From the IMG/VR virus record IMGVR_UViG_3300045922_000174: DNA of 42,869 nucleotides. One strand, given 5' to 3'. This stretch comes from a virus. A model generated the notes under the pieces. The model was not told the DNA's origin, made no database searches, and saw only the letters and a list, made by a program, of their open reading frames with translations. Positions 1 through 42,869 of this stretch are shown here, one piece after another. The translations under genes were made by a program, and so were the position numbers. Within the stretch, counting starts at the first letter, position 1. Every line of letters begins with the position of its first letter.

Positions 1-127
1 CTCCTCAAAGGAATACAATGTGTACTCGATTTTATGGCGGAAGACCTCGTACTTTTCCTTGTCCTGAAGAACGCGATACATGGTAACAATAGAGCCATTG
101 ATGTCATTGTAGAGTTCGGAGGGGTGG
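1..127. repeat. Terminal direct repeat, copy 1 (identical to 42743..42869); probably an assembly overlap of a circular or circularly permuted genome
   Basis: The first 127 nt (ctcctcaaaggaatacaatgtgtactcg...gttcggaggggtgg) recur exactly as the last 127 nt of the window. An ORF reads in frame through the junction. Confidence 0.9.
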
Positions 128-866: not shown

Positions 867-1199
867 TCACGATTTGAATTTGATATTGACGTACTCATCA
901 CCGGGAATGTAGTACTTTTGCTTCATCATTTGCAAATACGATTGGGTAAGGTAAGATTCACACGCTTTGCGAAAATCAGTCGTTGTTTTGGAATACAATC
1001 GCAACACATGTTCGGGAATTTGCGCTTCCTGCGCAATTCTTACGTAATCGTATGAGCCTCTCCCGGAGGAATACGTAGCAACGACACCATCGAACTCGAT
1101 GGTCTTTTTGAGTTGCATCACTTCCTGCCGGATTTCCTGTTCCAGCTCGTCCAGCTCCTTGCGGAGCTGCTTCCATCGTGCAAGTTTTTCAGTTAACAT
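867..1199 (-). CDS. Hypothetical protein (110 aa) with a coiled-coil N-terminus
   Basis: The internal ATG at 1199 (MLTEKLARWKQLRKELDELEQE...) overlaps the clamp stop by 11 nt. The upstream part of track ORF 867..1493 overlaps the clamp gene and is not credible. Confidence 0.6.
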   Translation of the reverse strand: MLTEKLARWKQLRKELDELEQEIRQEVMQLKKTIEFDGVVATYSSGRGSYDYVRIAQEAQIPEHVLRLYSKTTTDFRKACESYLTQSYLQMMKQKYYIPGDEYVNIKFKS

Positions 1200-4839: not shown

Positions 4840-4959
4840 TGTTTCTACCTCCGATTCTTTAACATTTGATTTTGTGTTTTCTTGCTGACACTGATTCGTG
4901 AAAATGGGGTGCGTTTTCTGCACATTTTGTGTTGAATGTGTGAATCATGTAACAAAACA

Positions 4960-5081
4960 TCGTTACACATTCGTTACATAAATCGTTACACATTCGTTAC
5001 ATAAATCGTTACATTAAATGTAACGTTTCGTTACATCATTCGTTACATTAAATGTAACGAATCGTTACATTAATCGTTACA
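4960..5081. repeat. Intergenic iteron array: 9 direct TCGTTACA copies plus 2 inverted copies (candidate replication origin or organiser binding array)
   Basis: Direct copies start at 4960, 4971, 4983, 4994, 5006, 5028, 5040, 5062 and 5074, a spacing of 11-12 bp or 22 bp. Two perfect 19-bp palindromes CGTTACATTAAATGTAACG lie at 5007..5025 and 5041..5059. No ORF is present. Confidence 0.8.
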
Positions 5082-30800: not shown

Positions 30801-33228
30801 GGGTGGGCTCCATGTCGAAATCACGCAAGAACTTCATGCGCGCTTTCGGACTGCGCCGGTTGAGTAAGCCGTCCCACGCCAACGTGACAATGTTGTTCAA
30901 TGCATTGTTCACGAAATAAGTCGGGTTCAACCCCAACAGTAAATAGCCTTGAACGCGCTTGTTGATGTCTATCAACGCTTCGCCCAAGCCCATCTTCTTC
31001 AAGCCGAAATATCGCGCTGACCATTCGTCTGCATGGTCAGCAAGCAAGGTAATCAGATGATAACGAAATACATCCGGGTCAAAAGCCGGCGCTTTCGCTC
31101 CATAGAAACCATCCGCAATTTGTTTCAGTTTCTTTGCACCGTCCGGGTCAACCGTAAAAGCGTTTAGCACCTCATACGTTCGCTTCCCCGCATCTGACAG
31201 TTTCTGATAATCCCCCAATGACTGTATCGCATCACGCAAGAGGGCTTGCGCTTTCGCATTGTCCCCAACGTGCAGGTCACGCAATACGGCGTATGGCTCT
31301 TGTCCCAATGCCAATGCCAATACATGAATCACCCGTCTTTCTGGCTCCGCCTTCTGGTAATTCGCCAACAACTCTTCCACCTTTGGCATGGCGTCACGAA
31401 TTGCCAACGGAACGTGTTGCGCCTCTGTGCTGGAGAACCAGCGCGGCAATGGCGCATCTACCAATTTGCCGCCAACACTCATCTTTATCGTCCCGGTTGC
31501 GGCTTGCACTGCATCTTCGGGTGTAAGATTAGCAATGCTCCTGACCAAATCCACCATGTTTTCGGGACTTTTCTTCTCCAGCGTCATCAGATTGGTCAAG
31601 CCGTCCACCGTGTTCTGTAACACGGACACGGCACGCGCTTTTGGCGTCAGACCGAAAACATTGGCATACAGACTGCTGACTAAATTCTTGTTTTCCGGTT
31701 TGGTGAAGTCAATCACACGCCCTTGACTGTCCAAGCCGGCGATGAAGCGTGCCAACGGATTGAGTTTTGCGGCTTGGTCAACCGGCAACTGGCGTGCTAA
31801 ATGGGCATAATATCGCGCTCCGGTCAATAAATCGGGAACACGCCCGGGCTGTTTCAAAAATGCTTCTGCCGCCATCGGATGTCCGGTGAGTTGTGCCGTT
31901 TTCCCAATCGCCTTTGAACCGACAACACCGGTCAAATCCAATGGGTCAAGGACGTAACCGCCAATCAAATCAGCAAATTCACCGCTGAAGCCAAACTGCA
32001 TCGTGTACCAGTTCAGGACTTCATCCGGTGTTATATCGCCGCGTGCCAATGCACGGCGCATTTCGGTCAACGCCCATTGGGTTGGCATTCCCTTTGGCGT
32101 GATAATGCTCTCATCTTGTGGTCTGGTGAGTTCAATTCGTGTAAATCCCGGCGTTCCTTTTCCGGTGAGTTGCTCCAGAAGCACTTCAATTTGCGCTGGA
32201 ACAGTGGCGTACAAACCACGTCCAGCCGCCGCGGCGGCTTCCCAATTCTTCAAAATCTCTTCGACTGAACCGTACTGTTCAGGGTCAATTGCTGAATACA
32301 ATAATTGCGTCAAAATACCAAGCAATTCCTGACTTTTACGGTACGGCTCATCTAGCAATGCCAATGCTTTCAACCAACCGGGCTCTTGATACACGCCGCC
32401 GCTGGCAATGATTTGTTGGGCGCGCTCCATCTCCTTGTACTGCGCCACGCCAAGTCCAGCACCACCCGCCAATCCGATGACACCACCAACCGGGCCCGCA
32501 AAAGCAAGACCTAAAATCCCGAAATTGAGTGCCGATTGTGCCGCCTGACCGGGCATGGTGCGGAAGATTGCCAATGCGGCTTTCTTCCAATCCGGCAATT
32601 GCTTCCACGTTTCCTCGTCAATCCCATACTGCGTCCAGGGCCCCACTGTGCCAACCTGTTTTGGCGGCACATACAAGCCAATATTCTTGGCTACCTCGAA
32701 CGACCGTGCCAATTGCTGACGTTCCCAATCCGGTATCGCTTCAATCGGCGGTGCAGGCATTTGCTTTACAAAATCGTGAAGCGGGTCATCCTTGCTGATT
32801 TGTCCCCAATTTATCCAGTCATCGCCGTATCTGGCGGTCAATTCTTTGTAAGCGGCTTCCAGTTTCGGCATGTCCAGCCATGCAGGCGGTTGAATGTCCG
32901 GCATGGTCTTGATGGCATTGTAGTATCGTCCAATCCGGCGTGCATCCGTCCAGAAATTCCCACCGGAGTTCCGGTCTTGCGCCACCCAATATTCTCCCAT
33001 CGGGCCCGGAATTTGCGGACGCGCAATTTCCATGCCCATTTCGGCGAACCGTTGTTGTACCAACGGATTATTGATGAACTCCTGCGATACATTCCAGAAA
33101 TACTCACCACCCGGCAGGTTAAAACGACCCACACCGGGCGATTTCTGATACTGCTCCGGCGTGTATTTGGGTGCTGGAATAGGAGTAATTTTGTTTGTCG
33201 GTGCGCCGTATGGGATTTTGGTTGCCAT
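18877..33228 (-). CDS. Giant multidomain virion-associated 'polyvalent' protein (4,783 aa) in the minor-head-protein (MuF) slot
   Basis: An uninterrupted reading frame of 14.35 kb. The likely start is ATG 33228 (MATKIPYG...) after GGAGGAT, overlapping the upstream stop (TGATG); the track start at 33261 has no RBS. It lies between the portal block and scaffold/capsid. It contains a glycine-zipper TM segment, a GGDEF-like domain, three repeated modules, an HExxH zincin and a ParB-like domain. Confidence 0.85.
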   Translation of the reverse strand: MATKIPYGAPTNKITPIPAPKYTPEQYQKSPGVGRFNLPGGEYFWNVSQEFINNPLVQQRFAEMGMEIARPQIPGPMGEYWVAQDRNSGGNFWTDARRIGRYYNAIKTMPDIQPPAWLDMPKLEAAYKELTARYGDDWINWGQISKDDPLHDFVKQMPAPPIEAIPDWERQQLARSFEVAKNIGLYVPPKQVGTVGPWTQYGIDEETWKQLPDWKKAALAIFRTMPGQAAQSALNFGILGLAFAGPVGGVIGLAGGAGLGVAQYKEMERAQQIIASGGVYQEPGWLKALALLDEPYRKSQELLGILTQLLYSAIDPEQYGSVEEILKNWEAAAAAGRGLYATVPAQIEVLLEQLTGKGTPGFTRIELTRPQDESIITPKGMPTQWALTEMRRALARGDITPDEVLNWYTMQFGFSGEFADLIGGYVLDPLDLTGVVGSKAIGKTAQLTGHPMAAEAFLKQPGRVPDLLTGARYYAHLARQLPVDQAAKLNPLARFIAGLDSQGRVIDFTKPENKNLVSSLYANVFGLTPKARAVSVLQNTVDGLTNLMTLEKKSPENMVDLVRSIANLTPEDAVQAATGTIKMSVGGKLVDAPLPRWFSSTEAQHVPLAIRDAMPKVEELLANYQKAEPERRVIHVLALALGQEPYAVLRDLHVGDNAKAQALLRDAIQSLGDYQKLSDAGKRTYEVLNAFTVDPDGAKKLKQIADGFYGAKAPAFDPDVFRYHLITLLADHADEWSARYFGLKKMGLGEALIDINKRVQGYLLLGLNPTYFVNNALNNIVTLAWDGLLNRRSPKARMKFLRDFDMEPTRLRQGIGAAEIGDVEFGRVEEIVGKKGIAKGERIGRHIEEAKEAQGAMAGVINFLKKGKKAQVFGILSQKVERWASEIAMINGIDEYFKNAWREGVAFERMSDELRLALDTVKPGLADKVKRAIESGMSKEAIERKIFKEIDTRSLDDVLTRQERNFLKQHFPEMYDELDEGLRNARSKQDIADVFERARSGLVRDLVNETMRNIEGRVEEAAQKAHVEKTQAVLDEADRATSMLAEVWLNHMFQMEMRAEEIRNLTGAERAREWRKLFEQQDAFWTLYQNQEGATWLGIFKGLGAEEASPEYVSAETTLLNIYATYRNFYQTRKDAFDNYWSVIERIDADETMPENMRAEARATAWEEVNAQVAREYRFMILAEDLLQDSLNKSFARQYQQQMNGDPQAYLDAMRWRESVQRVRRRTQQATLLFREGQIPQEFLDEWGDLLEPEVKQRILELNQGVPIHRIAVRERERINQIFYQTIYQPLIAELLDTSNRNAVGSTSLEKPELNLRPETRAQTEQAQPVAETAEVKPAEEKPQSTYVPSQPYDAVFEEQRRQEQIIWKLVAQELPEFRQVDAQGRPLKGSEQHLINFVRAYAQYEYVRSIKDITVPVLLRAIQEKKKTKRIDRFNAGYDIAPLQDVGQMPKDALSEQAVYMARALESRDFEADHDTYGFRNKGRMIKDLEKLAEQNKRAKKPKSYWTIAFDLRGLHLTNKKFGDLVGNAYIQYIGDVADSLGVSLYRIGGDEFAAIFEKKKDAENYAKQIQERVLHGTLTMKNSETGQIERYTGMMMHYAVGKLSDIPSIEDVYQVLKASEAQRNADPNFMKYDRSTYSLEKVEGETTEPPSEPLAQGNWMQQAEQMARVIELNMNDVLARADEPEYARQVAYQGVLEFLTERMRDERKALEQADAMLKIWDAMASHYAREYNTTPDAFYERFIIQYKDLPVDEEDLKQSRYVSSQWYYLKSQQAIEGAKVEKAPANQWLNILKSAQVKDEELRWMGLSNYLASKGNEVVTKQDLIDYLETEATQVMSVKDFSIRRKYFPKYELYSTYRETIRRGKDSADLREKFLGYNELLLQLPLYYTDSLPPDVELVPDNVLKGGYAIRDKYYGTVYEVDKTPHEAIRNFILGNYVYQSPHWSELNPIVHVRYTGFQHAGRTILYIDEIQSDWHQAGRRYGYFGELDRTLPEGYKIVDTGDTLGEKRIYAILDKRGLAITQIDSGDFERYQETGILPRYAALWIAQVENKVPPAPFSKNWDELAIKRMLRYAIEEGYSMIAISPGKVHEERWDLSKGIERLQVTFEDDGTGKPDFTKSVTLLIYPTEGKNEIERVNTYRELPSYIGEKLTEHVMQKADEGQILIDVDKEMLKTANAGVGKFYDERLIATANKYLKKWGKAFQYKEDALPFLWEPGAWVLDVDEPRMIDDLLAGQPLFQRVGNKWYSSKLLEEIDKARVNKATIGEWKRYLLGRGVSENEIYWSGVFDLFDDNDILTRGWLRQEIEYRYPDVKTLYNRAKRFGREKEKIADIEQSGKPIYGEYSYVAQSGGDYVELLLLNEHQGRTWSVAGDARVFADNPYDVTKLEALELLRTAVRQKERWARLHGEKLDVEWRTSKDGRSIEVYVDRELLASAQLNINFRHAWSDVAGTHWRKAGYWADRLLDKNEPLPFLHVRGGKIRTKNGKKAFFAEEIQSDLFQAKKLEFVNAEDGLPQRVERLDPTKFSFQLHFEKTIDDYALPREPEVALYDIYYNGIKTGRQAAGWLVERFKENPDEIISYLEQKKDFTYVIYGKKVLFFADESDLYYDPERYFRNFVNDFPFSDTKKWVELGLKRALHYAVKATDADYFILPSGVMNAALYYNTKKSPEKIEIMIAKNAPYLYQLLVDDDYSKGIFGYGRVNYLPSDPETNTAITLVNNPEHRAFLKNQLKEYIPHEHMIDQILDALVKQLQSGKYTEGKADYFNYLTVTIKLPKDNGVVITENPGLVYFYDKVVQSVATKLFKKWNVVPETETVKTEKLGKVDLTKIPITWEMRHSVEEGLPLFQRRKSPDEPASWYYSPTFRAVETMPQERMSSGQFLGYLKKRGLSREEMLWTGLDEYIARKDYVTKAELMEYLQRNSVELATLTKIEGLTRKNLEKLVLKVDDIMRSLKEKNPQFREERPTVWKRLLEEQMGLGRTKYEQYMPKFSELKYGSGKNYREFVLVPITMRDAYRGTIRIERAGMPDITKTLDVHSLKLNIYDTFRVYGLENLIDYKVEPDGKVELRFRSSEKPDNIFKITYEKEKMPDARTAIYRSTHFEDYGIVAHARTKELTLDTGERVLYVDEIQSDFFEELRQKQKQFEADKETKTSPQMADKILREFGYQEMPFAKKWDILVFKRMLHYAAERKMDGILIASGDIHTRRYAVPIEKIEIRNTGDGFHKLEYYVYTPDEGYEYLFSEYVRLPVENAAQVLHDRLNKSLVDGEFSLEHINRLLKEGNITFNRLSYDTTHGGLKKFYDEILPRKIEDYVKKWGVEPEAMYLPGEPNEFLFVPITDAMRRSVLEGQPLFSRRPADEDIPKGMTQFMKDGKALITIFKQSGDISTLVHETAHSFLTMLPKDDIAAVERWLKSVYQIEDLPEGWQYGTRTHRREKELFATAFEKYLAEGKAPNHRMKSIFEKFKRWLLDIYKSIRNIISGGEPIVLDENIRSVFDKWLSEEPYGLPKTKVDKEFENATYVHDLMSQPEVPVLRQEVPQPEQASRLTTARGQDVNKVYHFEYQVVPLDQLVISHLDNFSENPAYPSELQPRVRGRAASRDQVNRIASELSPGELLNDSPYIDRGPIIVGPDFVVESGNGRAMALRFAKENYPDKWQQYQNALAMRAQELGIDISGIENPILVRVRKDDVDRAAFAREANQIAVMAMSPAEKALQDAKFISDEALKNIQFPENVNEVVPIIASSKNADFVRSFVQQLPANERASMMDASGRLSSVGAQRIINAMFARVYANEAGARLITAFSESLDVSIRSLQSVLFRTLPAMANLEAQIGMGVVSPEYSIANDLSAAVDVIARLKQQGMSVKEFLSQATLFPTDDLTGFQRSLVKMIDDVGRETRKLDAVIRTYVDMALKQPPANQMTMFDVGRISKQDLFDAAASRNNVRFEVIQDVPRETARTVTEPPAETAPVAPVGEVMDSTAGRQPEPAGEPITELFGEQPVREQPVGEPVGEQPTGEQPAGEQPRVADAVGAPLGTYDSMRDAPMRDAMLEGTLRDVLPILDRAKNRALDAFSPEKAGGVRIPKETEDNLWRYLGGVYSNLADTRMGAIRWGETRRDFALLNYDRRHGYDTLLSAVFPYQFWYTRTMINWLLRMANKPSILANYYRLMRMASRREEKDGFPQRLKGKVPIPLPFLPEWMGQYGYVDPYRQIFPFLQLATPFVEIAEERNMLIRKTESILKEMRDNEEITDAQLQEALRKRNTPIWKRAYAQAENETEREYRNSADMLFSIYGPSLPIGIAYQYAMGTPERIGQMPLTRTIQNITGALGIGGPRGINIEGLVRTATGLPKIDRWEDYRVDRELSNMVADGLLDEQTAIRAMIERKGEAFEEAQRRVSQTGFVRMLGAGVALDIFPEGEAEMRALKNELTKAYEAQEKGDTQAVNKFWEKYPEYDARRMAMKNPQSRLRAFLISRIWERYLDLDPASQRMFKQMAGNKFTELFLDKKTRSYGSIDTDTLALWANTLGEKPLENVHDAKMEINWLPENVRAKVKQYYEERDRLFPRSETPQQTDPLRALFEKQPENNEEFIRWQNKYLAENPEIIPYVIGENNRLAGLPAEIQQYVYMYRAMRDELFPDIFQLQERYFALPQQQRRAFRAAHPELEQYWEFQRNFAAQYPKAAPYILTDESLARSILGERGGGRTSTGTGTGGTSRSVSPKPARPYLTPSELRRFSRGLIMQLYALKYRREALLPGARLEIERIWRSLGEPWGNLEDWIDNAVLPTIE
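21160..21255. repeat. Short imperfect tandem repeats encoding a Pro/Glu/Gly-rich linker (GEQPx units)
   Basis: The protein reads ELFGEQPVREQPVGEPVGEQPTGEQPAGEQPRV. The DNA shows reiterated ggctgttctcc / ggttgctctcc / gggttctcc units. Confidence 0.7.
22160..22557 (-). other. ParB/sulfiredoxin-fold (ParB-like nuclease, DdrB-type) domain
   Basis: VPLDQLVISH...ELQPRVRGRAASRDQVNRIASELSPGELLNDSPYIDRGPIIVGPDFVVESGNGRAMALRFA contains the LQPRxR and (S)GNGR motifs characteristic of ParB-like domains in polyvalent proteins. Confidence 0.6.
22800..23140 (-). other. Zincin-like metallopeptidase domain (HExxH) of the type found in phage/plasmid polyvalent proteins
   Basis: ISTLVHETAHSFL places HETAH at 23041..23055. 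It is followed by ELFATAFEKYLAEGKAPNHRMKSIFEKFKRWLLDIYKSI, which matches the HExxH ... ExFAxxFExY pattern I associate with polyvalent-protein metallopeptidases. Confidence 0.6.
23158..24651 (-). other. Repeated module copy 3 (about 498 aa) in the giant protein
   Basis: Ordered motifs are WYYSPTFRAVE...QFLGYLKKRGLSREEMLWTGLDEYI, then AHART...VLYVDEIQSDFFE, PFAKKWDILVFKRMLHYAAERKMDGILIASG, KFYDEILPRKIEDYVKKWG and GQPLFSRR. Confidence 0.7.
24652..26495 (-). other. Repeated module copy 2 (about 614 aa) in the giant protein
   Basis: Ordered motifs are WYSSKLLEEIDKA...EWKRYLLGRGVSENEIYWSGVFDLF, then LHVRG...FFAEEIQSDLFQ, PFSDTKKWVELGLKRALHYAVKATDADYFILPSG, YFYDKVVQSVATKLFKKWN and GLPLFQRR. Confidence 0.7.
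26496..27936 (-). other. Repeated module copy 1 (about 480 aa) of unknown function in the giant protein
   Basis: Ordered motifs are WYYLKSQQAIEG...QWLNILKSAQVKDEELRWMGLSNYL, then HVRY...ILYIDEIQSDWHQ, PFSKNWDELAIKRMLRYAIEEGYSMIAISPG, KFYDERLIATANKYLKKWG and GQPLFQR. Confidence 0.7.
28420..28820 (-). other. GGDEF-type (diguanylate-cyclase-like) nucleotide cyclase domain within the giant protein
   Basis: HDTYGFRNKGRMIKDLEKL (compare DxLTGLxNRR) ... YWTIAFDLRGLHLTNKKFGDLVGNAYIQYIGDVA (compare DIDxFKxxNDxxGHxxGD) ... VSLYRIGGDEFAAIF (a literal GGDEF at 28567..28581) ... MMHYAVGK (compare SIGVA). Confidence 0.75.
32440..32590 (-). other. Glycine-zipper / hydrophobic segment within the giant protein
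   Basis: ALAIFRTMPGQAAQSALNFGILGLAFAGPVGGVIGLAGGAGLGVAQY is the only strongly hydrophobic Gly-rich stretch near the N-terminus (roughly residues 215-260). Confidence 0.5.
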
Positions 33229-33740
33229 CAAATCCTCCAATTCATGACCGCAAGATACCATTCAGGTAGTTGATTTGTGCCGGCTCCGCCGCCATAGCCG
33301 CCACCATAGCCACCACCGCCACCACCGGCGAAATTGACCGGAGATGGTCTGGTTTCCTGCATCGGATAATTCAATGCCATCGCCGTCAGCCGCTGACCAT
33401 AGGTACGCCATCCACGTTGATTGGCATAATACCTTGCCCAATCCATCGGCGTCCAGTACTTCTGCTGGTAAGTGTAACGGTTGACCATTTCTTTATTGGT
33501 GTAGTAACGCGCCAATGCGTTCATCCGTGCAGAATACGCCTGTTGTGGTCTGTACGTCTGCGCCAACCCTGTCATCCGTTGGGCATACGCATTCTGCGAA
33601 CGCGATTGTTGCGTTAACGTCTGTGCTGTCGGTGCAAAAGACGGTGGTCTGGTGTAATTCCCCAATCCAGTACTGCCACCGCCACCCGTAGAAACACGGT
33701 CAATCAAATTCCTCATCCATTCAGGAATATTGCTTGCCAT
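33228..33740 (-). CDS. Hypothetical head-module protein (170 aa) with three 13-aa repeats and a Gly/Tyr-rich tail
   Basis: ATG at 33740 (MASNIPEWMRN...) after GGAGGAG. The repeats are AYAQRMTGLAQTY, AYSARMNALARYY and TYGQRLTAMALNY. The C-terminus reads FAGGGGGGYGGGYGGGAG. Confidence 0.65.
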   Translation of the reverse strand: MASNIPEWMRNLIDRVSTGGGGSTGLGNYTRPPSFAPTAQTLTQQSRSQNAYAQRMTGLAQTYRPQQAYSARMNALARYYTNKEMVNRYTYQQKYWTPMDWARYYANQRGWRTYGQRLTAMALNYPMQETRPSPVNFAGGGGGGYGGGYGGGAGTNQLPEWYLAVMNWRI

Positions 33741-33942
33741 TTTCTCCTCCTTCCACAATCTCCAGCAACTCCGGCGGGGCAATTATGCGCATTATCCTTT
33801 TGATTTCCTCCGGTATGTTCTGCCACGCAATATCTACAAGTTTCATGTCCGGCGCGTTCCACTCCGCCTCGAACTTCTCCCGCCATTCCAGCACCTGATT
33901 CATACCAAACAGTATCGCATCACTGGCTCGTAAGGCATCCAT
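33721..33942 (-). CDS. Hypothetical protein (73 aa)
   Basis: The ATG at 33942 overlaps the portal stop (TGATG) and has GAGGAGGA upstream. I recognise no motif. Confidence 0.55.
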   Translation of the reverse strand: MDALRASDAILFGMNQVLEWREKFEAEWNAPDMKLVDIAWQNIPEEIKRIMRIIAPPELLEIVEGGENGKQYS

Positions 33943-35696
33943 CACAATTCCTCCTCGCCCGGTAATCCGCGCTCAAATAATGGTTTGACCGGCTCCTGTA
34001 ACGGAAATCCTTGCAATCCCATTTGTGCTTCACCGCCATTCGCCCCGGGCGGCATCGGCGGCATCTCACCCGGCGGTTGTTGCGGCGGCATCTGCTCCAT
34101 TCCAGCCGGCGGCATCCCACCCGGCGGCATTCCACCTTGCATCATCTGTTGTGCCATCTGTTGTTGCTGTTGCGCCTGCATCATCTCTTCCTGTAGCATT
34201 TGCATAAAGCGCATTTGTGCCGCACGCTCACTCCATACGCGGTATTGCTCCATGTCCGGTTGCTCAATGCCCAAGAACTTACTGCGGGCATATTCCAGAC
34301 TGGCTAACGGATTTTCTCCTTGTGTCAACTGCAGGGCAATCATCGCATTCACGCGTTCATCCTGCGGCAAATCAATATCTAATTGTACGCTTACCTCAAA
34401 TTCATCGGGAATGTCATTGACATCATAATCAATATATCCATCATCTGTCACCACCCGTCCGCTCTCCCCCACCGTCTTCAGTATCTTGAAAGCGCACTTC
34501 AGCGCATCGCCAATTGCCCACGAAATCGTCCGCTGGTACGGCACTAACGGCAAGCGTCCAGACTGCGAAAGTAATGCCACCATGCTGAACGGCGCATTTG
34601 CACCCAACGGCTCACCCAACGTTTGACGATAAATTGTGCTATCCGCCGACAATTTATCGTACATCTCATTCATCTGCATCAGACTTGGGTCAAGTACCTG
34701 CTTCGCCAACGGCTGATAATCCTCATCGGCATCTATCGTCACCCGCCCGCCCGGCTGACTGAAGTCCATGTCCGGCGCGGTTTTGTCAGGACGGTTGCGC
34801 TTGTACAGGAACAACGGATTTGCACCTATCGCAAAGGCAAGCGATGACTGCAACGTCAATGATAAATTCTGTCGAAATACTAAATTGCTCTTCCACAACG
34901 TGTACAAAAACGGCTGGCGTGTCTGGTACACATCGCGCCCAAATTGGGAAGCAGAAAATAACTCGCTCCCTTCGCACACCTGACAAATGACGGGAATGTA
35001 CCCCCACGGGTTTTCCTCGTCAATCGCCGGTCTTTCCTGCCCTTCCACCCAAACCACATGCTGGTCAAAATCCCAATACTCGTACACCTTTATATCATCG
35101 GTGTCTTTCCGCCCTTCGATATTCTCCAACTTCAGAATGTCCCGCATGTCACCAACCCGCCGCATCTGCGCCGATACATACGCTTTCAATCCCATCTCAT
35201 CCATCACCGGATACCCCGCCGTTGGATTGATGACATCAAAAATAATCGGCGTCCGCTTCGCCAATTCCTGCAATCGCCTGTTCTTCGGATTGGACTGCAA
35301 CATCTGAACCGTGCTTTTTACGGCTATCTGGACTTCACTGTACAACAATCCAGACAACACGGCGTCATAATGCACCGGCTTCCCGCGAATACGACCAGCG
35401 GCACGCCATAAGACGTTCCCTAATCGCTCAATCTTGGACGCTTGCTCTGTCTTATAGTCCTGATTGTATTCTTCCGCAATCGAGATTTTCGGGTCTGCCG
35501 CCGTCAATAACCTGACCGCACCAACCAGCGCATTTCGCGCGTCAGGATGACGTGTCGGCTTTATCCAGTCATTGTCCGGCAAATCCCCCATGTCCTCCAG
35601 CAGGTAAATCTTCTCCATCTCTCGAAACATCTTGTCTCGATTGGAGTATCCAGAGATTACATCACTGGCATAACGTTTCACTTCATCAAAATTCAT
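33942..35696 (-). CDS. Portal protein (putative) with a Q/M/P/G-rich low-complexity C-terminus
   Basis: 584 aa, immediately downstream of terL and of typical portal size. The C-terminal 90 aa are low in complexity (MQAQQQQQMAQQMMQGGMPPGGMPPAGMEQMPPQQPPGEMPPMPPG...). Confidence 0.7.
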   Translation of the reverse strand: MNFDEVKRYASDVISGYSNRDKMFREMEKIYLLEDMGDLPDNDWIKPTRHPDARNALVGAVRLLTAADPKISIAEEYNQDYKTEQASKIERLGNVLWRAAGRIRGKPVHYDAVLSGLLYSEVQIAVKSTVQMLQSNPKNRRLQELAKRTPIIFDVINPTAGYPVMDEMGLKAYVSAQMRRVGDMRDILKLENIEGRKDTDDIKVYEYWDFDQHVVWVEGQERPAIDEENPWGYIPVICQVCEGSELFSASQFGRDVYQTRQPFLYTLWKSNLVFRQNLSLTLQSSLAFAIGANPLFLYKRNRPDKTAPDMDFSQPGGRVTIDADEDYQPLAKQVLDPSLMQMNEMYDKLSADSTIYRQTLGEPLGANAPFSMVALLSQSGRLPLVPYQRTISWAIGDALKCAFKILKTVGESGRVVTDDGYIDYDVNDIPDEFEVSVQLDIDLPQDERVNAMIALQLTQGENPLASLEYARSKFLGIEQPDMEQYRVWSERAAQMRFMQMLQEEMMQAQQQQQMAQQMMQGGMPPGGMPPAGMEQMPPQQPPGEMPPMPPGANGGEAQMGLQGFPLQEPVKPLFERGLPGEEEL

Positions 35697-35699
35697 CGC

Positions 35700-37172
35700 C
35701 TACCTCGCTTTCAACCACGGGTTATTCCGCTCCATTTTACCCTTCGCCGGCTGACCGGCGTAATCTACCAGCGTATTGAACGCCGTTGACGCGGCATCTA
35801 CCATGTCATCATGAATCTTATCGGGAAAACCGTGTAACTGCGATAAGAACGCATCTACCCATCGCCCGGCAACCAGACGCACCAAACCCTGCTCCGCCGC
35901 GCTGGAAAATCCCATCGCACGTTGCACTTTGTCCCCATACGCCGGGACACCATCACAATTGATTGTCCCGAATTTGCTCGTCAGCAACCGCTTCAACCGC
36001 TCCGTTTCCCGTATTCCTGCACTACCCGGCTCCACTTCCCACCGCAACACGTAATGCGCTCCCGCCGCTTCAGCAAGTTTCCGGTCACGTTCAGCGGTCA
36101 AGGCTATCACATCGTCTAATTCACCGGCACTGTATCGCTCATTGATTACGTCCATGACGTAATAATACCCGCCTACCTTCCTCATCTTCACGCCCGCCGT
36201 GTAGTCCGGGTCATTATTCCGCAAACTGCGCAACGTTGCCGCAAAATCCCATGCCCGGCATTCCACACCACCATCAGGAACGTAATTCACCACTTCGAAC
36301 CACTGTGAATTGAACACTTTGCCGGCTTCCGCGCGGATTTTCCAGTTCCCGCCGCGCTTTGCGTCACCCAAAAAACGCTCACGCTCCACATATTGTAACA
36401 TCTGCAAGCGTGACAGGTAATTGGGGTCTTTCTCTAACAACAATTTATTGTCATACACCGTAGCAGGGATAAACGTCATGCTTAATGTCTTGACGCCCGG
36501 ATACTCGTTCAGTATCACGTTCTCGTTTTCCGCCATCTTCAATTCATCGTTTATCCGCGCTATCCATACAATCTTCCCCGCTTTGGATAAATCGGCATAC
36601 CCATCATCGCCTATCCAGTATGACAATAATTGCGGTAGCCAATCTGAACCCTCATCCCGCGGGTCAGGAGGGTTACACGTGGCGCGCACACGCGGAGGAA
36701 CGCCGCATGTCGTGCGGTTGCGCGCCATTAAGTACCAGAATGCACGCTCCGAAAAATGCTCCAACTGGTCAAACGCAAGCAAAGCAATTTGCGCGCCATC
36801 ATACTTGTACAAATCGCCGTCCGACTGGCAGTGACCAAACGCCACCACCGCGCCGGACGGAAAACGCCATTCCATGTCCTTTTCGGACGCACGCGCCCCC
36901 AACAACGGGTATATCCGGGACGCTTCATCCCACAACCCGCCCGGCTTCGTCACGTCCGCATACGTCCGCCGGAATATCAGCGCACGAAAACCGGGAACAT
37001 TTATATCCCGCAACGGGTCAAGCAGTAATGCCCATGTCTTCCCGCCGCCCGCCGCGCCGCCATAAATGGCAATATCGGCAGGTGTGGACAGGAATTCTTC
37101 CTGCCGTCCGGGTTGCGGTTTGATAATAACCGCTTCGGCGTCACTCGTTGTCACCGGTGGGCGGTAGAACAT
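35700..37172 (-). CDS. terL: Terminase large subunit
   Basis: 490 aa. The Walker A motif is IYGGAAGGGKTWALL. The Walker B/coupling region is LLAFDQLEHF, followed by ATCNP. A C-terminal nuclease-like region contains ...CRAWDFAAT... and ...HDDMVDA. Confidence 0.9.
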   Translation of the reverse strand: MFYRPPVTTSDAEAVIIKPQPGRQEEFLSTPADIAIYGGAAGGGKTWALLLDPLRDINVPGFRALIFRRTYADVTKPGGLWDEASRIYPLLGARASEKDMEWRFPSGAVVAFGHCQSDGDLYKYDGAQIALLAFDQLEHFSERAFWYLMARNRTTCGVPPRVRATCNPPDPRDEGSDWLPQLLSYWIGDDGYADLSKAGKIVWIARINDELKMAENENVILNEYPGVKTLSMTFIPATVYDNKLLLEKDPNYLSRLQMLQYVERERFLGDAKRGGNWKIRAEAGKVFNSQWFEVVNYVPDGGVECRAWDFAATLRSLRNNDPDYTAGVKMRKVGGYYYVMDVINERYSAGELDDVIALTAERDRKLAEAAGAHYVLRWEVEPGSAGIRETERLKRLLTSKFGTINCDGVPAYGDKVQRAMGFSSAAEQGLVRLVAGRWVDAFLSQLHGFPDKIHDDMVDAASTAFNTLVDYAGQPAKGKMERNNPWLKAR

Positions 37173-37722
37173 CTATCACCTCTTGCGCTTGCGCCATTCT
37201 GCGGTGATTGTCAGGTATGTACACCACAACGTTATTGGTCGTCTCTACGCGGTCAACCATCATCCCGTACATCCGCGCCAATGCCAATAACGCCGTCAAC
37301 TTATCGTACATCTCCACATCTACGCTCCCGTCACGATTTAGCCGGATTTTACGGATAAGACCGGTCAACCCCTTTTCCTTCGCCGCTTTCAGGTTGAATT
37401 TGCCGTCCTCATCTATGAACTCCCCGATGTCACCGCGCGCAATCTCCGCAATCCGGGATTTGACCTCGTCCGCACTCATGCTCATCTTCTGGAGATGATA
37501 CATGACCGCTTCGCGGACAATGGGTATCATCATCAGGGAACGCCCCTTATCCTGCTTGTCTTTCAGGTCGTAGCCGGCTAGTTTAACCGCTTCAACGTAG
37601 GATGACGTTTGGGCGTAGTACTTGGCAAATAGCCAAGTCTTGTAATCCATGCGCTGGAAGTATGCCGGCCGGTCATCCACGACCGGACTTTGTTCGTCAG
37701 CAGGTTTCAGACGGTTTGTCAT
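37141..37722 (-). CDS. terS: Terminase small subunit (Terminase_2-like)
   Basis: 193 aa. WLFAKYYAQTSSYVEAVKLAGYDLKDKQDKGRSLM is an HTH region as in small terminases. ...MSADEVKSRIAEIARGD... and KLTALLALARMYGM also fit, and the gene sits directly upstream of terL. Confidence 0.8.
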   Translation of the reverse strand: MTNRLKPADEQSPVVDDRPAYFQRMDYKTWLFAKYYAQTSSYVEAVKLAGYDLKDKQDKGRSLMMIPIVREAVMYHLQKMSMSADEVKSRIAEIARGDIGEFIDEDGKFNLKAAKEKGLTGLIRKIRLNRDGSVDVEMYDKLTALLALARMYGMMVDRVETTNNVVVYIPDNHRRMAQAQEVIDVLPPTGDNE

Positions 37723-38099
37723 TCCTCACCATGCATAACGCCGTTATCCGGTTTGGCAGGGAACATCTCCCCATAAATCGCTTTGGCGTTACCTACGATT
37801 GACGACACGACACGCGCCACCGCGGCAAGCCAAGCCGCAGTGACGACGGTATCGCTGGCGATGTAGGCGTAATCGCCCATGGTGTCAGGAACGGCGGCAC
37901 GCGCAAGAATGGCGAACGCCGCCCAACCGACAAGCAAGGGTAATACGCTTGTCTGGTAAAACCGCGCCAATTCGTAAAACGAGAATTGACCGCGCTTGAT
38001 AGCCAGTGCTACGCCTAGGATGACGTCAGCGGCTATGAGTGCAAGCAACGTCTGAATCTGCGTCCCGAACGCGGATAGAACGTTTAGGGTAATCTCCAT
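37719..38099 (-). CDS. Three-TM membrane protein, holin-like (phage holin family 4 / LL-H-like pattern)
   Basis: 126 aa with RBS AGGAGGTG. TM1 LLALIAADVILGVALAIKRGQFS resembles the (I/L)DxxTG(V)xxAxxxxxxxS motif of toxin-secretion/phage-lysis holins. Two further TM segments follow. It is the first gene after the leftward promoter. Confidence 0.5.
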   Translation of the reverse strand: MEITLNVLSAFGTQIQTLLALIAADVILGVALAIKRGQFSFYELARFYQTSVLPLLVGWAAFAILARAAVPDTMGDYAYIASDTVVTAAWLAAVARVVSSIVGNAKAIYGEMFPAKPDNGVMHGEE

Positions 38100-38118
38100 G
38101 CGTCACCTCCTACCACCC

Positions 38119-38147
38119 ATTATAACTATCGCTTCTCCAGTTTTCAA
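38119..38147 (-). promoter_or_regulatory. Near-consensus sigma70-type promoter for the leftward gene train (TTGAAA-17-TATAAT)
   Basis: The minus strand reads TTGAAA (38147..38142), a 17-nt spacer, then TATAAT (38124..38119). AGGAGG and the ATG at 38099 follow about 20 nt downstream. Confidence 0.7.
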
Positions 38148-38154
38148 TCATTCA

Positions 38155-38690
38155 CGGCACGCACAGGAAGCGGCGATACCTGCAAACGGCGCGCGGTCAC
38201 GCTGGACGCCGAACACAGGAAGCCGGCAGGACGCGCCGCGCATACGCGCGGCGGCGGCGCGCGAAGCGCGCCGCACTGCCACAGTCTGGACGCCACCAGA
38301 CCGGATAACAGGAACTCCCGCCCCGGGCGCGGAACGCGCGCACTGGAACGCTGGACGCTGGACGCTCCAGCAGGTATCCGAACGCGCGCACTGGACGCCG
38401 CGCCACACAGGAACACGCGCCGCGCGTATGGTCACGCTCCAGCAAGACAGGGAACGGCGAACGCTCCGGCCGGCTTCCTGCGTTTCATTCTTACTTGCGT
38501 TTCACGCACTGCGCCGCGCCGCTCCGCGCAAGCAAAAACCGCTTGCGCTCCGCTTGCGCGTGTTCGTCCTCTCCCTGCCAAAAAGACGCTTCCTGCACAG
38601 GAAGAGAGAACGCCGCGCGCTGGAACGCACAGGAACGCGCCGAAACGCCGCACAGGATGACGCCCCGCGCGCGCGCTGGACGATGAACAA
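38155..38690. repeat. GC-rich non-coding island densely packed with short direct and inverted motifs (CACAGGAA and CTGGA(A)CGC families)
   Basis: (C/A)ACAGGAA-type motifs start at 38162, 38214, 38307, 38406, 38446 (degenerate), 38596, 38628 and 38651, with inverted CTTCCTG at 38474 and 38589. CTGGA(A)CG(C/A) starts at 38202, 38286, 38343, 38351, 38358, 38391, 38620 and 38676. A 13-nt long-range inverted repeat pairs CATACGCGCGGCG (38241..38253) with CGCCGCGCGTATG (38417..38429). A hairpin GCGCAAGC-N7-GCTTGCGC lies at about 38525..38547. All six frames are open only because stop codons are rare in GC-rich DNA. Confidence 0.8.
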
Positions 38691-38784
38691 ATGTAACAAC
38701 AGAATGTTACAAATGATAACGGACATTGCGCGCGCGGAAAGTTTCCAGTGAGAGACACTCTCAAAACTGGTGAATTTTGGGGAC

Positions 38785-38813
38785 TTGCAAATTACAATAT
38801 TGTTTGTTACAAT
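38785..38813 (+). promoter_or_regulatory. Near-consensus sigma70-type early promoter for the rightward block (TTGCAA-17-TACAAT)
   Basis: TTGCAA lies at 38785..38790, followed by a 17-nt spacer and TACAAT at 38808..38813. The upstream flank is AT-rich. AAAGGAGA and the ATG at 38852 follow. Confidence 0.7.
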
Positions 38814-38851
38814 AGTGTAAAACACATTCCCAAACAGAAAGGAGATAAACC

Positions 38852-39169
38852 ATGAGCAAGATAGAGGAGTTTTTAGAAAGACTGAACGAAAGTGTGGAGG
38901 GGTTGAACGTAAGCGAAGAATACTTTGTGGACGGCGTTTTGAATCTGCTTTGTGACCTAGAAGACTTTTCGGAAAGCCGGCGGAATGCTGAAGAGATTAT
39001 CGAGAAAGCGCGCAAGGTGAACGCGAGCGGAAAGAAAGTGCCGCGTTTCGTGAAAGTTCTTGCGACGTGCGAAGATTACCCGGAAAAGCGAACGGCGGTT
39101 TGGGTTGCGTATTTTACTGCGGACAATGACTGCTACGATTGTCTGCTACCCAAACCGGAAGCGGTCTAG
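38852..39169 (+). CDS. Hypothetical early protein (105 aa) with a strongly acidic N-terminal half
   Basis: It is the first gene after the early promoter, with RBS AAAGGAGA. The product begins MSKIEEFLERLNESVEGLNVSEEYFVDGVLNLLCDLEDFSE... Confidence 0.75.
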   Translation: MSKIEEFLERLNESVEGLNVSEEYFVDGVLNLLCDLEDFSESRRNAEEIIEKARKVNASGKKVPRFVKVLATCEDYPEKRTAVWVAYFTADNDCYDCLLPKPEAV

Positions 39170-39230: not shown

Positions 39231-39725
39231 ATGAAAATCAAGATGAGCGATAGACACGGCGTGATAGAGGAGTGGAACGTCAAGTCTCACTACTACGACA
39301 TGGAGTTCCCGGTTGTAATATGCGTCAATGGCGATGAGGAAGCAGAGTTCATCCTTGCCCGGCATGACGAACACGCGGGCGAACTTGCTAAACTCCACTG
39401 GTTATATATGGCAATGTCCGACCCGCGGGAATTTGCGGAAATCATCGGCATTGAAACAATGGTGTCGTGGTTGCTTGGCGATTGGGCAGGGCCCGGGAAC
39501 GAACACGCGCGGTCATTTGAGGAATGGTTGAATGATGTTGTTTCAAGGTATCCTGCAGAAACCCTGTCCGTTGACGACATGGCGCGAACGGTGTTTGAAA
39601 ACGAGGAACTAGAAGCGGAAGTTGGCTTCATGCCGCGATTAGCCTATCGGCGCGCACAAAGCGATAAATCTATTCATCCTGTTGAAGCCTTCGCCGGGTG
39701 GGCGGTGAAACCCGGCAGGAGATAA
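39231..39725 (+). CDS. Hypothetical early protein (164 aa), paralog of 39908..40315
   Basis: Good RBS. It shares with the 135-aa ORF the pattern A..AG..A......A..DP.EF....G..T...W..G......(S)..EWL.....E......GF.P..AY. Confidence 0.75.
   Translation: MKIKMSDRHGVIEEWNVKSHYYDMEFPVVICVNGDEEAEFILARHDEHAGELAKLHWLYMAMSDPREFAEIIGIETMVSWLLGDWAGPGNEHARSFEEWLNDVVSRYPAETLSVDDMARTVFENEELEAEVGFMPRLAYRRAQSDKSIHPVEAFAGWAVKPGRR
39688..39719 (+). promoter_or_regulatory. Conserved RNA hairpin, copy 2, able to pair with the Shine-Dalgarno sequence of the downstream gene
   Basis: The stem pairs GCCGGGT (39693..39699) with ACCCGGC (39710..39716) around the loop gggcggtgaa. CCT (39688..39690) can pair with AGG (39717..39719) of the AGGAGA RBS of the gene starting at 39728. 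It lies inside the 3' end of the preceding CDS. Confidence 0.5.
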
Positions 39726-39907: not shown

Positions 39908-40315
39908 ATGAGAATAAAAATTGACGGAATAGAGTACATCGCATGGAACATCTGGACGTATGGTGAGTATCTCCCGCTTGTGGAGATGGAGTACGGCGCA
40001 AAATACAGGGTTGCCGCAGACAAAGAAAGCGCAGGGATGGCGGCACAGGCGTATTTTGCTGACCTTGCTCACCGTGACCCCTACGAGTTTATCTTGATGG
40101 TTGGCGCGAAGACCATAATCAATTGGGCGCAGGGATGCCGCGGCGAAGCCTTCGGCATTGAGGCGTACTCGATGACCGAATGGCTGGAAAAGGCAACCGC
40201 AATTCCAGAAGTGGCATTCGGATTGAACATGCAGGAATACAAAGTTGATGAGGTGGATGAAGAAGTTATCAAAGCTCTTGGTTTTCGTCCAACCGTAGCA
40301 TATGAAACCTACTAA
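39908..40315 (+). CDS. Hypothetical early protein (135 aa), paralog of 39231..39725
   Basis: RBS is GAGGAGA. See the paralog pattern under 39231..39725. Confidence 0.75.
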   Translation: MRIKIDGIEYIAWNIWTYGEYLPLVEMEYGAKYRVAADKESAGMAAQAYFADLAHRDPYEFILMVGAKTIINWAQGCRGEAFGIEAYSMTEWLEKATAIPEVAFGLNMQEYKVDEVDEEVIKALGFRPTVAYETY

Positions 40316-41024: not shown

Positions 41025-41536
41025 TAATCCGATTTGAAAATGAAGAGACTGCCGGGCGCGCGCTTGCGCGCGCCCATTCTACGCTTAAATGGCGCGCATT
41101 CATCAATCGGGTTGAGGATAGCATCGCCGTATGCCCGACCAATCCACAAATCAATGCGGAGACACTGCGCGCCGTCCGCCCCATGCGTCCCGTCTGCGCG
41201 TTCTTCGATGATAAACCGGTGTTCGAGGACAACATCATCGAAACGTGGGCAATCTGCGCCTCGTTCGGGGAGAACGCAAATTGGAAAGTCTTGAAGGGGA
41301 ACATCTACTATGTCCCCCTGTACATGGACATCCGCACATCCCGCCAATGGTACGCATTGTTACCTGTAGGCAATGAGGCGGTGGTCAGGATAAAAAACGT
41401 GGACGACTTCAGTCCAACCCACAAGTATCCGTTGTCGTTCAACGGCACAGTAAAACTTATAAAGGGATATATCCCAAGAAAGGAGGAAGAAAATGATACA
41501 ACAGCGTCCTACTTTATCCATCTATTGCGACCGTAA
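41021..41536 (+). CDS. Hypothetical early protein (171 aa)
   Basis: ATG at 41021 (MIIRFENEETAGRALARA...) after AAAGGAGA. The track start at 40991 is not supported by an RBS. Confidence 0.65.
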   Translation: MIIRFENEETAGRALARAHSTLKWRAFINRVEDSIAVCPTNPQINAETLRAVRPMRPVCAFFDDKPVFEDNIIETWAICASFGENANWKVLKGNIYYVPLYMDIRTSRQWYALLPVGNEAVVRIKNVDDFSPTHKYPLSFNGTVKLIKGYIPRKEEENDTTASYFIHLLRP

Positions 41537-41825
41537 AACCCTCGAACGTGTCCGCCAAGTTGCGCGCGCGCACGGCTTCACCCACCTTCGAGGAAGCCGC
41601 ACAGGACATGGGTCTCCAAACCAAATCTTTGAAGCAATCGGCAAGGGAGACTTGGCACTGGTCAGGGTAGAAGGGATACGGCACGAGATATTGAGAGAAA
41701 TCGCCAAAGAGATTGAGAAAACTGCAGACACCACAGAACACGACCTCGAGGGCGTGTTGTTGCGAAAATTCGCACGCGCCCTCGAAGTTGCCGCATTATC
41801 GAAAATTAGGCTTGAACAATTATAA
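41493..41825 (+). CDS. Hypothetical protein (110 aa); possible ribbon-helix-helix-type DNA-binding N-terminus
   Basis: RBS is AAAGGAGGAA. TLSIYCDRKTLERVRQVARAHGF has a strand-helix pattern like RHH/CopG proteins, though weakly. It overlaps the preceding ORF by 44 nt. Its 3' end overlaps the convergent DUF1064 gene by 20 nt. Confidence 0.55.
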   Translation: MIQQRPTLSIYCDRKTLERVRQVARAHGFTHLRGSRTGHGSPNQIFEAIGKGDLALVRVEGIRHEILREIAKEIEKTADTTEHDLEGVLLRKFARALEVAALSKIRLEQL

Positions 41826-42144: not shown

Positions 42145-42869
42145 CGAATAGTCTCCTTTGCCCATACTTTCCGGGCTTGATGTAAAGCACTTCCTCTCTG
42201 TGAAGGAACTCTTCCCATTCCGGGCTTTCCATCTTTTCTTTGTCTGCCTTCTTGGCAGAATGCGCCACTCCGTCCTTGACCACCTTATAGCACAACCCCG
42301 CTTCGACCAGCCGGTTGTAAATCGGGTTGTCGTATGAGGAAAGCGCAAATGAACCCTTCACCTGAAGCAACAGGTCAACCAACTCCTCATGCTTTTCATC
42401 GCTCATCTCATGGGTATATACGATTTTTTCCTTGCGTGTTCCAGTCGGATACGGCGGGTCTAAATAGAACACGGTGTCAGGCGTGTCGTAACGTCGGATT
42501 ACATCGAGGGCGTCACGGTTATCAATGATGACATACTGCAGGCGTTCATGTATCCGTTGCAGACTTTCTTTGCGATGGGAAAATGCTATGGGAACGTTGG
42601 TTTTAACTGCGAACCTGAAACTGCCAGGGCGGTTTTGTTGAATACCTGAAAGCGCCATTGAAAGCATCACAAAAACTGCCCAAGCGCGGTCAACATCATC
42701 CGCTTCGACACGTCCGTCGTAAATATCAACTGCTTTCCTGTACTCCTCAAAGGAATACAATGTGTACTCGATTTTATGGCGGAAGACCTCGTACTTTTCC
42801 TTGTCCTGAAGAACGCGATACATGGTAACAATAGAGCCATTGATGTCATTGTAGAGTTCGGAGGGGTGG
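42137..42869 (-). CDS. C-terminal part of the Dam-like (D12 class) N6-adenine DNA methyltransferase (continues from 1..270 across the circular junction)
   Basis: It contains VFYLDPPYPTG (DPPY catalytic motif IV). The frame stays open upstream of the annotated Met at 42823 to the window end and joins the N-terminal part through the 127-bp overlap, giving a total of about 291 aa. Confidence 0.85.
   Translation of the reverse strand, partial: HPSELYNDINGSIVTMYRVLQDKEKYEVFRHKIEYTLYSFEEYRKAVDIYDGRVEADDVDRAWAVFVMLSMALSGIQQNRPGSFRFAVKTNVPIAFSHRKESLQRIHERLQYVIIDNRDALDVIRRYDTPDTVFYLDPPYPTGTRKEKIVYTHEMSDEKHEELVDLLLQVKGSFALSSYDNPIYNRLVEAGLCYKVVKDGVAHSAKKADKEKMESPEWEEFLHREEVLYIKPGKYGQRRLFDE
42743..42869. 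repeat. Terminal direct repeat, copy 2 (identical to 1..127)
   Basis: Exact 127-nt identity with the window start. The unique genome length is therefore 42,742 bp. Confidence 0.9.

Follow-up and report, generated by a model that had tools for sequence, protein, structure and literature searches.

Known packaging sites use short repeats, as in the P1 pac hexamers and the lambda cosB R sites, and these sites, together with pacL and pacR of SPP1, place short repeated words in a non-coding or leader region by the terminase genes. Arrays read by ribbon-helix-helix (RHH) and partition proteins, such as those of omega from pSM19035 and ParR-parC from R1, hold many words of 7-11 nucleotides (nt), direct and inverted, in a promoter region. 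CsrB and RsmZ are non-coding RNAs of a few hundred nt with about 16-20 irregularly placed GGA words, and repetitive extragenic palindromic (REP) elements and bacterial interspersed mosaic elements are chains of short GC-rich perfect palindromes in extragenic spacers. In T5-like phages, an untranslated region of repeats and palindromes, the injection stop signal, acts in cis as DNA and adjoins a short block of early genes (10.1101/866236). All of these resemble in part the locus described here, a GC-rich island at 38155-38690 of the IMG/VR virus record IMGVR_UViG_3300045922_000174, which comes from an uncultured, tailed, podovirus-like phage and was analysed over its whole length of 42,869 nt (the window). 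The island is a non-coding array of one short motif in a biased orientation, and the best explanation we can offer is an accessory, lineage-specific cis element in which the motif is set among perfect GC-clamp palindromes as a multivalent array.

The island belongs to the general kind of repeat-rich cis elements, but it fails at least one defining feature of each system named above and therefore was not filed under any of them. The pac and cos sites are essential and travel with their TerS, whereas the island is missing beside closely related TerS and TerL proteins and its motifs show no phasing. RHH and partition arrays are contiguous and regular and lie beside par or regulator genes; the island copies, in contrast, are mostly dispersed, no ParA, ParB or ParR gene accompanies them in Pfam scans, and the hint of an RHH protein is sub-threshold. 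Several of the GGA words are identical to the CsrB/RsmZ word CAGGA(U/A/C)G, but the island has no promoter on that strand, the motifs fall outside the predicted loops and there is no Rfam match. REP elements are present in multiple copies per genome, whereas the island is a single locus and carries an extra, non-palindromic oriented motif. The order of the T5-like regions is conserved in all T5-like phages and they contain eight DnaA boxes, whereas the island is confined to a narrow lineage, has no DnaA-box match, is GC-rich, and shows no sign of a nearby genome end in a phage known from assemblies alone.

A sequence-only reading of the window had drawn attention to the island as a compositionally distinct, GC-rich block of repeats. 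Its observations were confirmed, its interpretation was partly supported, and its packaging and origin proposals are now disfavoured. GC content is 68.3%, about 19 points over the 49.3% of the genome, and this is the maximum among all 536-nt windows (mean 0.493, standard deviation 0.041; about +4.5 standard deviations). The CpG observed/expected ratio is 1.45 versus 1.18, and the plus strand is poor in T (A 112, C 197, G 169, T 58 in 536 nt). The word (C/A)ACAGGAA occurs in six exact copies (38162, 38214, 38307, 38406, 38596 and 38628), so that the earlier count of at least eight stands only when two one-off variants are added, ACAGGAT at 38652 and ACAGGGA at 38447. The two inverted copies are present as TTCCTG at 38475 and 38590. 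At least eight copies of CTGGA(A)CG(C/A) had also been proposed, and exactly eight were found in the genome, all of them inside the island and on the plus strand. This enrichment survived a composition-matched null model of 1000 dinucleotide-preserving shuffles of the island: ACAGGAA was observed 6 times against 0.02 expected, CTGGA(A)CG 8 times against 0.11, and the core CWGGA 16 times on the plus strand and 4 times on the minus strand against 0.75, with none of the observed counts reached in any shuffle (0/1000 each). No second cluster of the CWGGA-type motif was found elsewhere in the genome.

The two words had been taken as separate families that often pair in a fixed composite unit. The spacers between the supposed halves measure 5, 14, 8 and 1 nt, which leaves no fixed unit, and alignment of the copies gave a single degenerate family, (G/A)C(A/G)C(A/T)GGA(A)(C/G), in short CRCWGGA(A)CG, or (T)TCCWGYG when seen in the direction of the late operon. 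Sister genomes exchange the two classes at identical positions, TTCCTG becoming GTCCAG and the reverse (for example GTGTTCCTGTG to GGCGTCCAGTG and CGTTCCAGTG to CGTTCCTGTG); because they replace each other in this way, the ACAGGAA and CTGGACG types are one family. Orientation is strongly biased, with 16 of the 20 copies on the plus strand and four inverted. The copies are dispersed with unique spacers and do not form a tandem minisatellite, and Tandem Repeats Finder reported only micro-arrays in the island (periods 5-13 nt, 2-4 copies). A ToxI-like type III antitoxin or a CRISPR-like array was rejected, as the regular tandem repeats of about 30-36 nt were not found. The island and its right-hand border can be divided as follows.

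38155..38465, plus strand: part A, an array poor in T and dense in motifs, with 11 CWGGA-type copies in forward orientation (38164, 38202, 38216, 38227, 38286, 38309, 38343, 38351, 38358, 38391 and 38408)
38234..38274: two neighbouring all-GC perfect hairpins, CGCCGCGC-atac-GCGCGGCG and GCGGCGCGC-gaa-GCGCGCCGC
38284..38301: perfect hairpin GTCTGG-acgcca-CCAGAC
38343-38370, within part A: heptad run CTGGAACG-CTGGACG-CTGGACG-CTCCAG, three forward copies in tandem and one inverted
38357..38371: perfect palindrome GCTGGA-cgc-TCCAGC, made of one forward and one inverted motif copy
38466..38595, no strand assigned: part B, a T-richer core in which the forward motif is absent, with the inverted TTCCTG at 38475 and 38590
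38479 and 38496: direct repeat TGCGTTTCA of part B
38526..38548: hairpin GCGCAAGC-aaaaacc-GCTTGCGC of part B, with a 7-nt loop
38589..38604: palindrome CTTCCTG-ca-CAGGAAG, followed on the minus strand by CGTCTTTTT, terminator-like
38596..38690, plus strand: part C, with five forward copies (38598, 38620, 38630, 38653 and 38676) at spacings of 22, 10, 23 and 23 nt
38665-38674: (CG)n run of part C
38692-38711: perfect palindrome TGTAACA-N6-TGTTACA, operator-like, at the end of the array
38745..38770: two-tier hairpin CCAGT-GAGAG-aca-CTCTC-aaa-ACTGG, followed on the plus strand by TGAATTTT (to 38782), directly upstream of the early promoter

The island likewise has an excess of perfect hairpins whose stems reach 6 base pairs (bp) or more (12 against 2.9 expected, P ~0.008). 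The palindrome at 38589-38604, the hairpin with the 7-nt loop, the 13-nt inverted repeat (38241-38253 / 38418-38430) and the unit GGTCACGCT, which occurs twice (38195 and 38430), had all been named before and are all present. Every local hairpin of the island is a perfect Watson-Crick palindrome with zero G-U pairs. In the related contig L008 the 38526-38548 hairpin reads GCGGACGC-N7-GCGTCCGC, which amounts to two compensatory double changes, and the 38745-38770 hairpin shows one compensatory change, C-G to G-C, in the L016/L012 haplotype. The latter hairpin, with its T run to 38782, could be a plus-strand terminator or an operator. Long-range pairing did not withstand comparison: helices from the inverted repeats I1 and I3 were rejected, I1 being broken in L010/L011, and the one long-range helix proposed by RNA folding (38212-31 with 38465-84) is broken in the same genomes. 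A 12-nt inverted repeat around the whole region (38133-44 / 38763-74) is at chance level, was not kept in L016, and was likewise set aside. The palindrome at 38692-38711 has a GTTACA core in common with the origin iterons described below and with the -10 region of the early promoter (TTGTTACAAT), and it can be read as an extended -10 element on both strands.

The island is non-coding, as had been proposed. Six reading frames are left open by its GC-rich sequence and none of them gave a Pfam family; the 217-amino-acid plus-strand frame had no homologue among 5.8 billion (5.8e9) proteins; and near-identical phages differ by frame-breaking indels, those of L010 relative to the window being -2, +2, +5, +1 and -5 nt. 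No known RNA family was recovered either: the Rfam 15 covariance models gave no match at gathering thresholds over the whole window, a permissive search of 37900-39000 gave only two chance-level matches (E 2.7 and 7.5), and no tRNA or tmRNA is present. By blastn, the island itself matched none of 50,697 phage records or 72,556 plasmids. When IMG/VR was scanned for the exact words GAACGCGCGCACTGGA and CTGGACGC-N(0-20)-CACAGGAA, single chance matches alone came up, and the core word CGCAAGTAAGAATGAAACGCAGG was found in the L001 contig only. A comparable motif cluster was seen at none of 160 loci from TerL-profile scans of metagenome and genome collections and at none of 126 pattern-match loci, and a holin-profile scan of IMG/VR added nothing further. 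Look-alikes of ECF-sigma, sigma-54, LexA, cre and DnaA-box sites were dropped after inspection by eye or pattern search, and the GC-rich repeat of L298 proved to be tandemly repeated coding sequence. The sample accessions led to nothing in the literature.

Relatives were collected as JGI and Logan contigs that encode an identical holin or an identical first early protein, and all of these close relatives carry the island. The phage is represented in the runs SRR30649436, SRR30649429/33, SRR35365466 and SRR35364754 and in JGI 3300044959/60 and 3300045912. Five island haplotypes were distinguished, of which those of window/L009/L016/L012, L010/L015 and L011/L013 are complete and those of L022 and L008 partial. 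Despite substitutions and indels, exactly 16 oriented copies are present in all six full-length intergenic regions, which represent three haplotypes (window/L016, L010/L015 and L011/L013). Because the classes swap while the number stays at 16, the short motif looks like the conserved unit and not the sequence around it; the latter, we infer, turns over by conversion between copies. Divergence within the island is patchy, of an order as in patches of terL, with 89-100% identity per 200-nt window, and contigs of several assemblies break inside the island. The most distant carrier is L008 (dS, the synonymous divergence of the flanking genes, 0.21-0.36), in which about 200 nt of part A are lost or rearranged. 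Part B is best conserved in this comparison, its roughly 10% mismatches lying below the synonymous divergence, and motif cores are retained where flanks have changed. The L016/L012 haplotype lacks the 105-amino-acid first early gene, and the island is kept in L016.

In close relatives the island and its 16 copies are kept, but beyond the lineage the island is absent. L003/L183, with a holin 78% and a TerL 70% identical, have a 148-nt spacer and no island; L184 has a 224-nt spacer and no island; L004 and L023 have none. Among the relatives compared, the island is therefore restricted to one narrow phage lineage, and those with 70-80% identical holin, TerS or TerL lack it. The synteny break falls exactly at the island, and L003 has another divergent neighbour. 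In L185, whose holin is 56% identical, the same position is taken up by 678 nt of gene-free spacer (L185 604-1281) with a word of its own, GCGCGTT, in 6 copies in holin sense and 1 antisense, as well as elements composed of a GC-hairpin and a U run. GCGCGTT occurs three times in the window, on the same strand as the L185 copies (holin sense). In the L185 spacer, CTAGCGCGTTTTT, TGTAAC and the 22-nt repeat GACCGGTGGTRGRCTTRAGTAC are also present, each in two copies.

The array lies between two divergent promoters, both of which had been noted earlier and were confirmed. A relaxed scan added two weaker sites.

38119..38147 (read 38147..38119), minus strand: late promoter TTGAAA-17-TATAAT of the holin-terS-terL operon, near-consensus (11/12 positions)
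38785..38813, plus strand: early promoter TTGCAA-17-TGtTACAAT of the rightward operon of small proteins
38821..38794, minus strand: weak promoter-like site TTTACA-16-TATTGT
38719..38690, minus strand: weak promoter-like site TTATCA-18-TGtTACATT, predicted start ~38683, reading into the island

In the reading that we favour, with a probability of roughly 0.35, the island serves as duplex DNA: an accessory landing pad on which a sequence-specific protein docks to act on the promoters beside it. The reading as an accessory multivalent platform follows from an oriented word that is conserved in number and from the position of the array between the late promoter and the operator-like palindrome. 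About 52 nt separate the first motif copy from the predicted start of the late promoter, which lies downstream of it. A DNA-level element is favoured because, among other points, no acceptable plus-strand promoter enters the island; perfect palindromes that contain no G-U pairs, together with a broken long helix, fit DNA-level symmetry better than selection on a single-stranded RNA. The array would gather many copies of a DNA-binding protein beside the late promoter and the early promoter/operator, the protein being either a phage early protein or a host protein, and the resulting nucleoprotein block might control or insulate the two back-to-back promoters.

A landing pad of this sort was among the earlier suggestions and is still the single best reading, but the reader proposed at the time, the ParB-like domain of the giant 4794-amino-acid protein, is unsupported: the domain is of the ddrB-ParB type of polyvalent virion proteins and nothing ties it to the motif. 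It is the sole ParB-type match in Pfam scans, which detected no partition genes (ParA/ParB or ParM/ParR). As a lead and not a finding, a ribbon-helix-helix protein is a candidate class of reader. The heptad run at 38343-38370 resembles arrays read by such proteins, and the last early gene (41493-41825, plus strand) encodes a 110-amino-acid protein with a sub-threshold RHH_1 match (E 0.027) and a model with a beta-strand/helix N-terminus at low confidence (predicted local distance difference test score 62). In L003, which has no island, a 25%-identical relative of this protein is encoded directly beside the holin promoter (8-310, minus strand).

Several points weigh against the landing pad. Relatives do without the island, and any function it has must therefore be dispensable. 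Motif spacing is irregular, unlike that of classical iteron, parC or heptad arrays, and its Rayleigh power lies within the null, so helical phasing is not significant. The island is very rich in GC and depleted of T outside the motif as well, for which protein binding offers no explanation, and the candidate protein, drawn from a sub-threshold RHH match and a poor model, is a weak one. The minus strand folds better than shuffled sequences (z -3.75 to -4.6), and the compensatory changes in the hairpins at 38526-38548 and 38745-38770 fit RNA equally as DNA. Both weak promoter-like sites could transcribe the island leftward. It is also possible that the island has no function at all.

These promoter-like sites qualify the earlier statement that neither promoter transcribes the island, which holds for the two consensus promoters and overlooks the weaker pair on the minus strand. 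They make RNA a serious rival, and the evidence on DNA versus RNA points both ways. A leftward transcript from the promoter at 38719..38690, which overlaps the operator-like palindrome TGTAACA-N6-TGTTACA, or from that at 38821..38794, would form a small RNA or a structured leader ahead of the late operon. With its 16 UCCWG motifs, this RNA could titrate a factor that binds RNA, base-pair to sequences of the GGA type, or govern how much transcription reads through into holin-terS-terL. We regard this as a tentative possibility. Such promoter-like sites occur on the minus strand only, and one has the extended -10 TGtTACATT, nearly that of the early promoter, with which it has the 8-mer TTGTTACA in common; they are weak, however, matching 8-9 of 12 consensus positions, and a near-consensus late promoter follows downstream of the island anyway. 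The stronger folding of the minus strand (against z -2.2 to -2.5 on the plus strand) and the compensatory changes agree with a transcript, as does a small hairpin of L022 in which two substitutions are tolerated solely as G-U pairs on the minus strand, but RNAalifold gave an unfavourable covariation term for the island alignment, the long helix is not conserved, no Rfam family matches, and the local stems carry no strand information because all are perfect palindromes. The hairpin at 38604-38589 is followed by five U on the minus strand, yet the run begins 4 nt past the stem and the hairpin is weakened in L011/L013/L022, being degraded in L011. Motifs in the predicted minus-strand ensemble are only slightly more exposed than average (0.40 versus 0.28 unpaired). 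Strand-wide depletion of A would fit selection on one strand, and the GC-hairpin plus U-run elements of L185 have the matching orientation.

Transcription in the other direction would give a sponge RNA of the CsrB/RsmZ type, with 16 GGA motifs (CAGGAAG, CAGGAUG, CUGGACG) that sequester a CsrA-like protein. The 16 GGA-containing copies do lie on the plus strand, and four of them are exact matches to CAGGA(U/A/C)G, the repeat of E. coli CsrB. The segments that bear the motif have GC clamps on either side, and the stretch 38745-38782 holds a hairpin with UUUU after it on the plus strand. We nevertheless find this idea hard to credit, since no plus-strand promoter of at least 8/12 was found upstream of the array, folding on this strand reaches a z of only about -2.3, Rfam has no match, and the GGA triplets are not preferentially unpaired (mean probability 0.38 versus 0.36 for the whole RNA). 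We found no report of a phage-borne CsrA sponge in the literature.

More general is the proposal that the island acts as a multivalent decoy, RNA or DNA, in which 16 oriented CWGGA/UCCWG words between GC clamps titrate a host factor; its target could be a post-transcriptional regulator, a nuclease/helicase or a defence sensor. On present evidence this is unlikely. The oriented sites might instead serve as decoy or protective DNA for a host nuclease or helicase, in the manner of Chi, or for a defence or methylation system, and would slow degradation or time a methylation switch. A dense, irregular cluster of one oriented short motif does agree with the logic of Chi or of the GATC clusters of oriC and P1 pac, and the G-rich holin-sense strand, with its GCGCGTT- and AGCGG-like words, resembles Firmicutes Chi sites. 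The phage also avoids restriction sites strongly (GATC 0 versus 174 expected, GGCC 17 versus 150) and has an orphan D12 methyltransferase. The motif, however, is degenerate whereas Chi sites are exact, and we consider this reading decidedly improbable.

The island is separated from terS by 430 nt and from terL by about 1 kb, lies upstream of both with the holin gene in between, and had been proposed as a packaging initiation site or terminus. A pac or cos region, or genome termini, with repeats bound by TerS would suit a position upstream of the holin-terS-terL operon with copies that point toward terS. An essential site of this kind is argued against because the island is absent from relatives with closely related holin, TerS and TerL: L003/L183, L184, L004 and L023 share the module and have no island. 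Terminase_2-type TerS proteins usually recognise a site in or beside their own gene. The conserved late module does not include the island, so that an exchange of modules would part TerS from the site it binds. Phasing of the motifs is not significant, and the assembly is circular with contig ends that do not cluster at a fixed point. A packaging role is thus quite improbable in our view.

A second origin, also suggested before, fared no better. Twelve TCGTTACA iterons spaced 11-12 nt apart lie at 3686-3717 and 4960-5081, within a region (3677-3717 and 4948-5081) that also has two inverted copies, inside and directly downstream of a DnaB_2/DnaD-like gene (3273-4079), and this array is the likely replication origin. 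The island, by contrast, has no regular spacing, AT-rich unwinding region or DnaA boxes by pattern search. A Logan contig of the same phage breaks inside the TCGTTACA array.

There remains the explanation that the island has no selected function. It would then be a GC-rich spacer, prone to recombination, that slippage and gene conversion have enlarged where the exchangeable early and late modules join, and that is tolerated there. Its absence beyond the immediate lineage, its position exactly at the synteny break, the loss or rearrangement of some 200 nt in L008, the patchy, conversion-like variation and the breaking of contigs within it are all as such a spacer would show, and template switching can create perfect palindromes and 'compensatory' changes with no selection. 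Against it stand the 16:4 orientation bias with a constant 16 copies across haplotypes, motif cores kept while flanks change, a part B that diverges less than synonymous sites, dispersed copies with unique spacers in place of a tandem minisatellite, and the analogous long spacer of L185, with its own strand-specific GCGCGTT (6 versus 1). We hold a functionless spacer to be doubtful, and prefer the landing pad.

Phage annotation is gene-centred and seldom explains large non-coding blocks, whereas this island is clearly defined and statistically solid, and lies at the exact meeting point of the phage's early and late programmes. Given a protein or RNA partner, it would serve as a compact model of a multivalent nucleic-acid platform that times or insulates two promoters or titrates a host factor; a decoy, if that reading were true, would be a non-coding counter-measure of a type hitherto undescribed for phages. 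Were it functionless, it would be a documented case of the growth of GC-rich repeat spacers where modules join. For comparison, nature already offers L008, with fewer copies, and L003 and L184, with none. Its interest is limited by the rarity of the uncultured lineage and by its dispensability in relatives.

The remainder of the genome is organised around the same junction. Bases 1-127 recur exactly at 42743-42869, at the two ends of the window, which shows it to be an assembly closed into a circle of about 42,742 bp; its start point is arbitrary and falls inside a methyltransferase gene. A long leftward operon begins directly left of the island and includes the following genes.

37719-38099, minus strand: Phage_holin_4_1-type membrane protein of 126 amino acids, Pfam match exactly at threshold
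37141-37722, minus strand: TerS, in the leftward operon
35700-37172, minus strand: TerL, in the leftward operon
33942-35696, minus strand: portal, in the leftward operon
18877-33261, minus strand: polyvalent protein of 4794 amino acids, a single open reading frame that takes up one third of the genome

Just two recognisable domains, ddrB-ParB (residues 3569-3699) and GGDEF (1491-1615), were found in the 4794-amino-acid protein, which looks like a virion-borne polyvalent protein; a PDB sequence search with it found no relative. Further products of the leftward operon are the capsid, an SU10-type adaptor, a GH25 lysin, RecT, the DnaB_2/DnaD-like protein and a sliding clamp. The clamp is a DNA polymerase III beta homologue of the phage's own (1189-2244, minus strand), and no polymerase was recognised in the scans made. 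Neither an integrase, nor a ParA or ParB operon, nor a repressor was recognised in Pfam scans of neighbouring and other genes. The distance to cultured phages is very large, the top TerL match being 44% identical, and the nearest named genomes by TerL profile are of Anaerolineales, Slackia and Geobacteraceae at 47-50% identity, which does not settle the host.

Over the whole window GATC is absent against about 174 expected, GGCC occurs 17 times against 150 and AGCT 34 times against 80, and GGCGCC is absent; this is a strong signature of restriction avoidance. An orphan D12-class N6-adenine methyltransferase is encoded from 42137 to the end of the window, wrapping to its start. To the right of the island, a short rightward operon of eight small proteins with no known function runs from 38852, and in the L016/L012 haplotype its promoter has a better -35, TTGACA. 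Two of the early proteins, e164 (39231-39725) and e135 (39908-40315), are both matched by one L016 protein (L016 3-278), at 49% and 40% identity, and appear to be paralogues.

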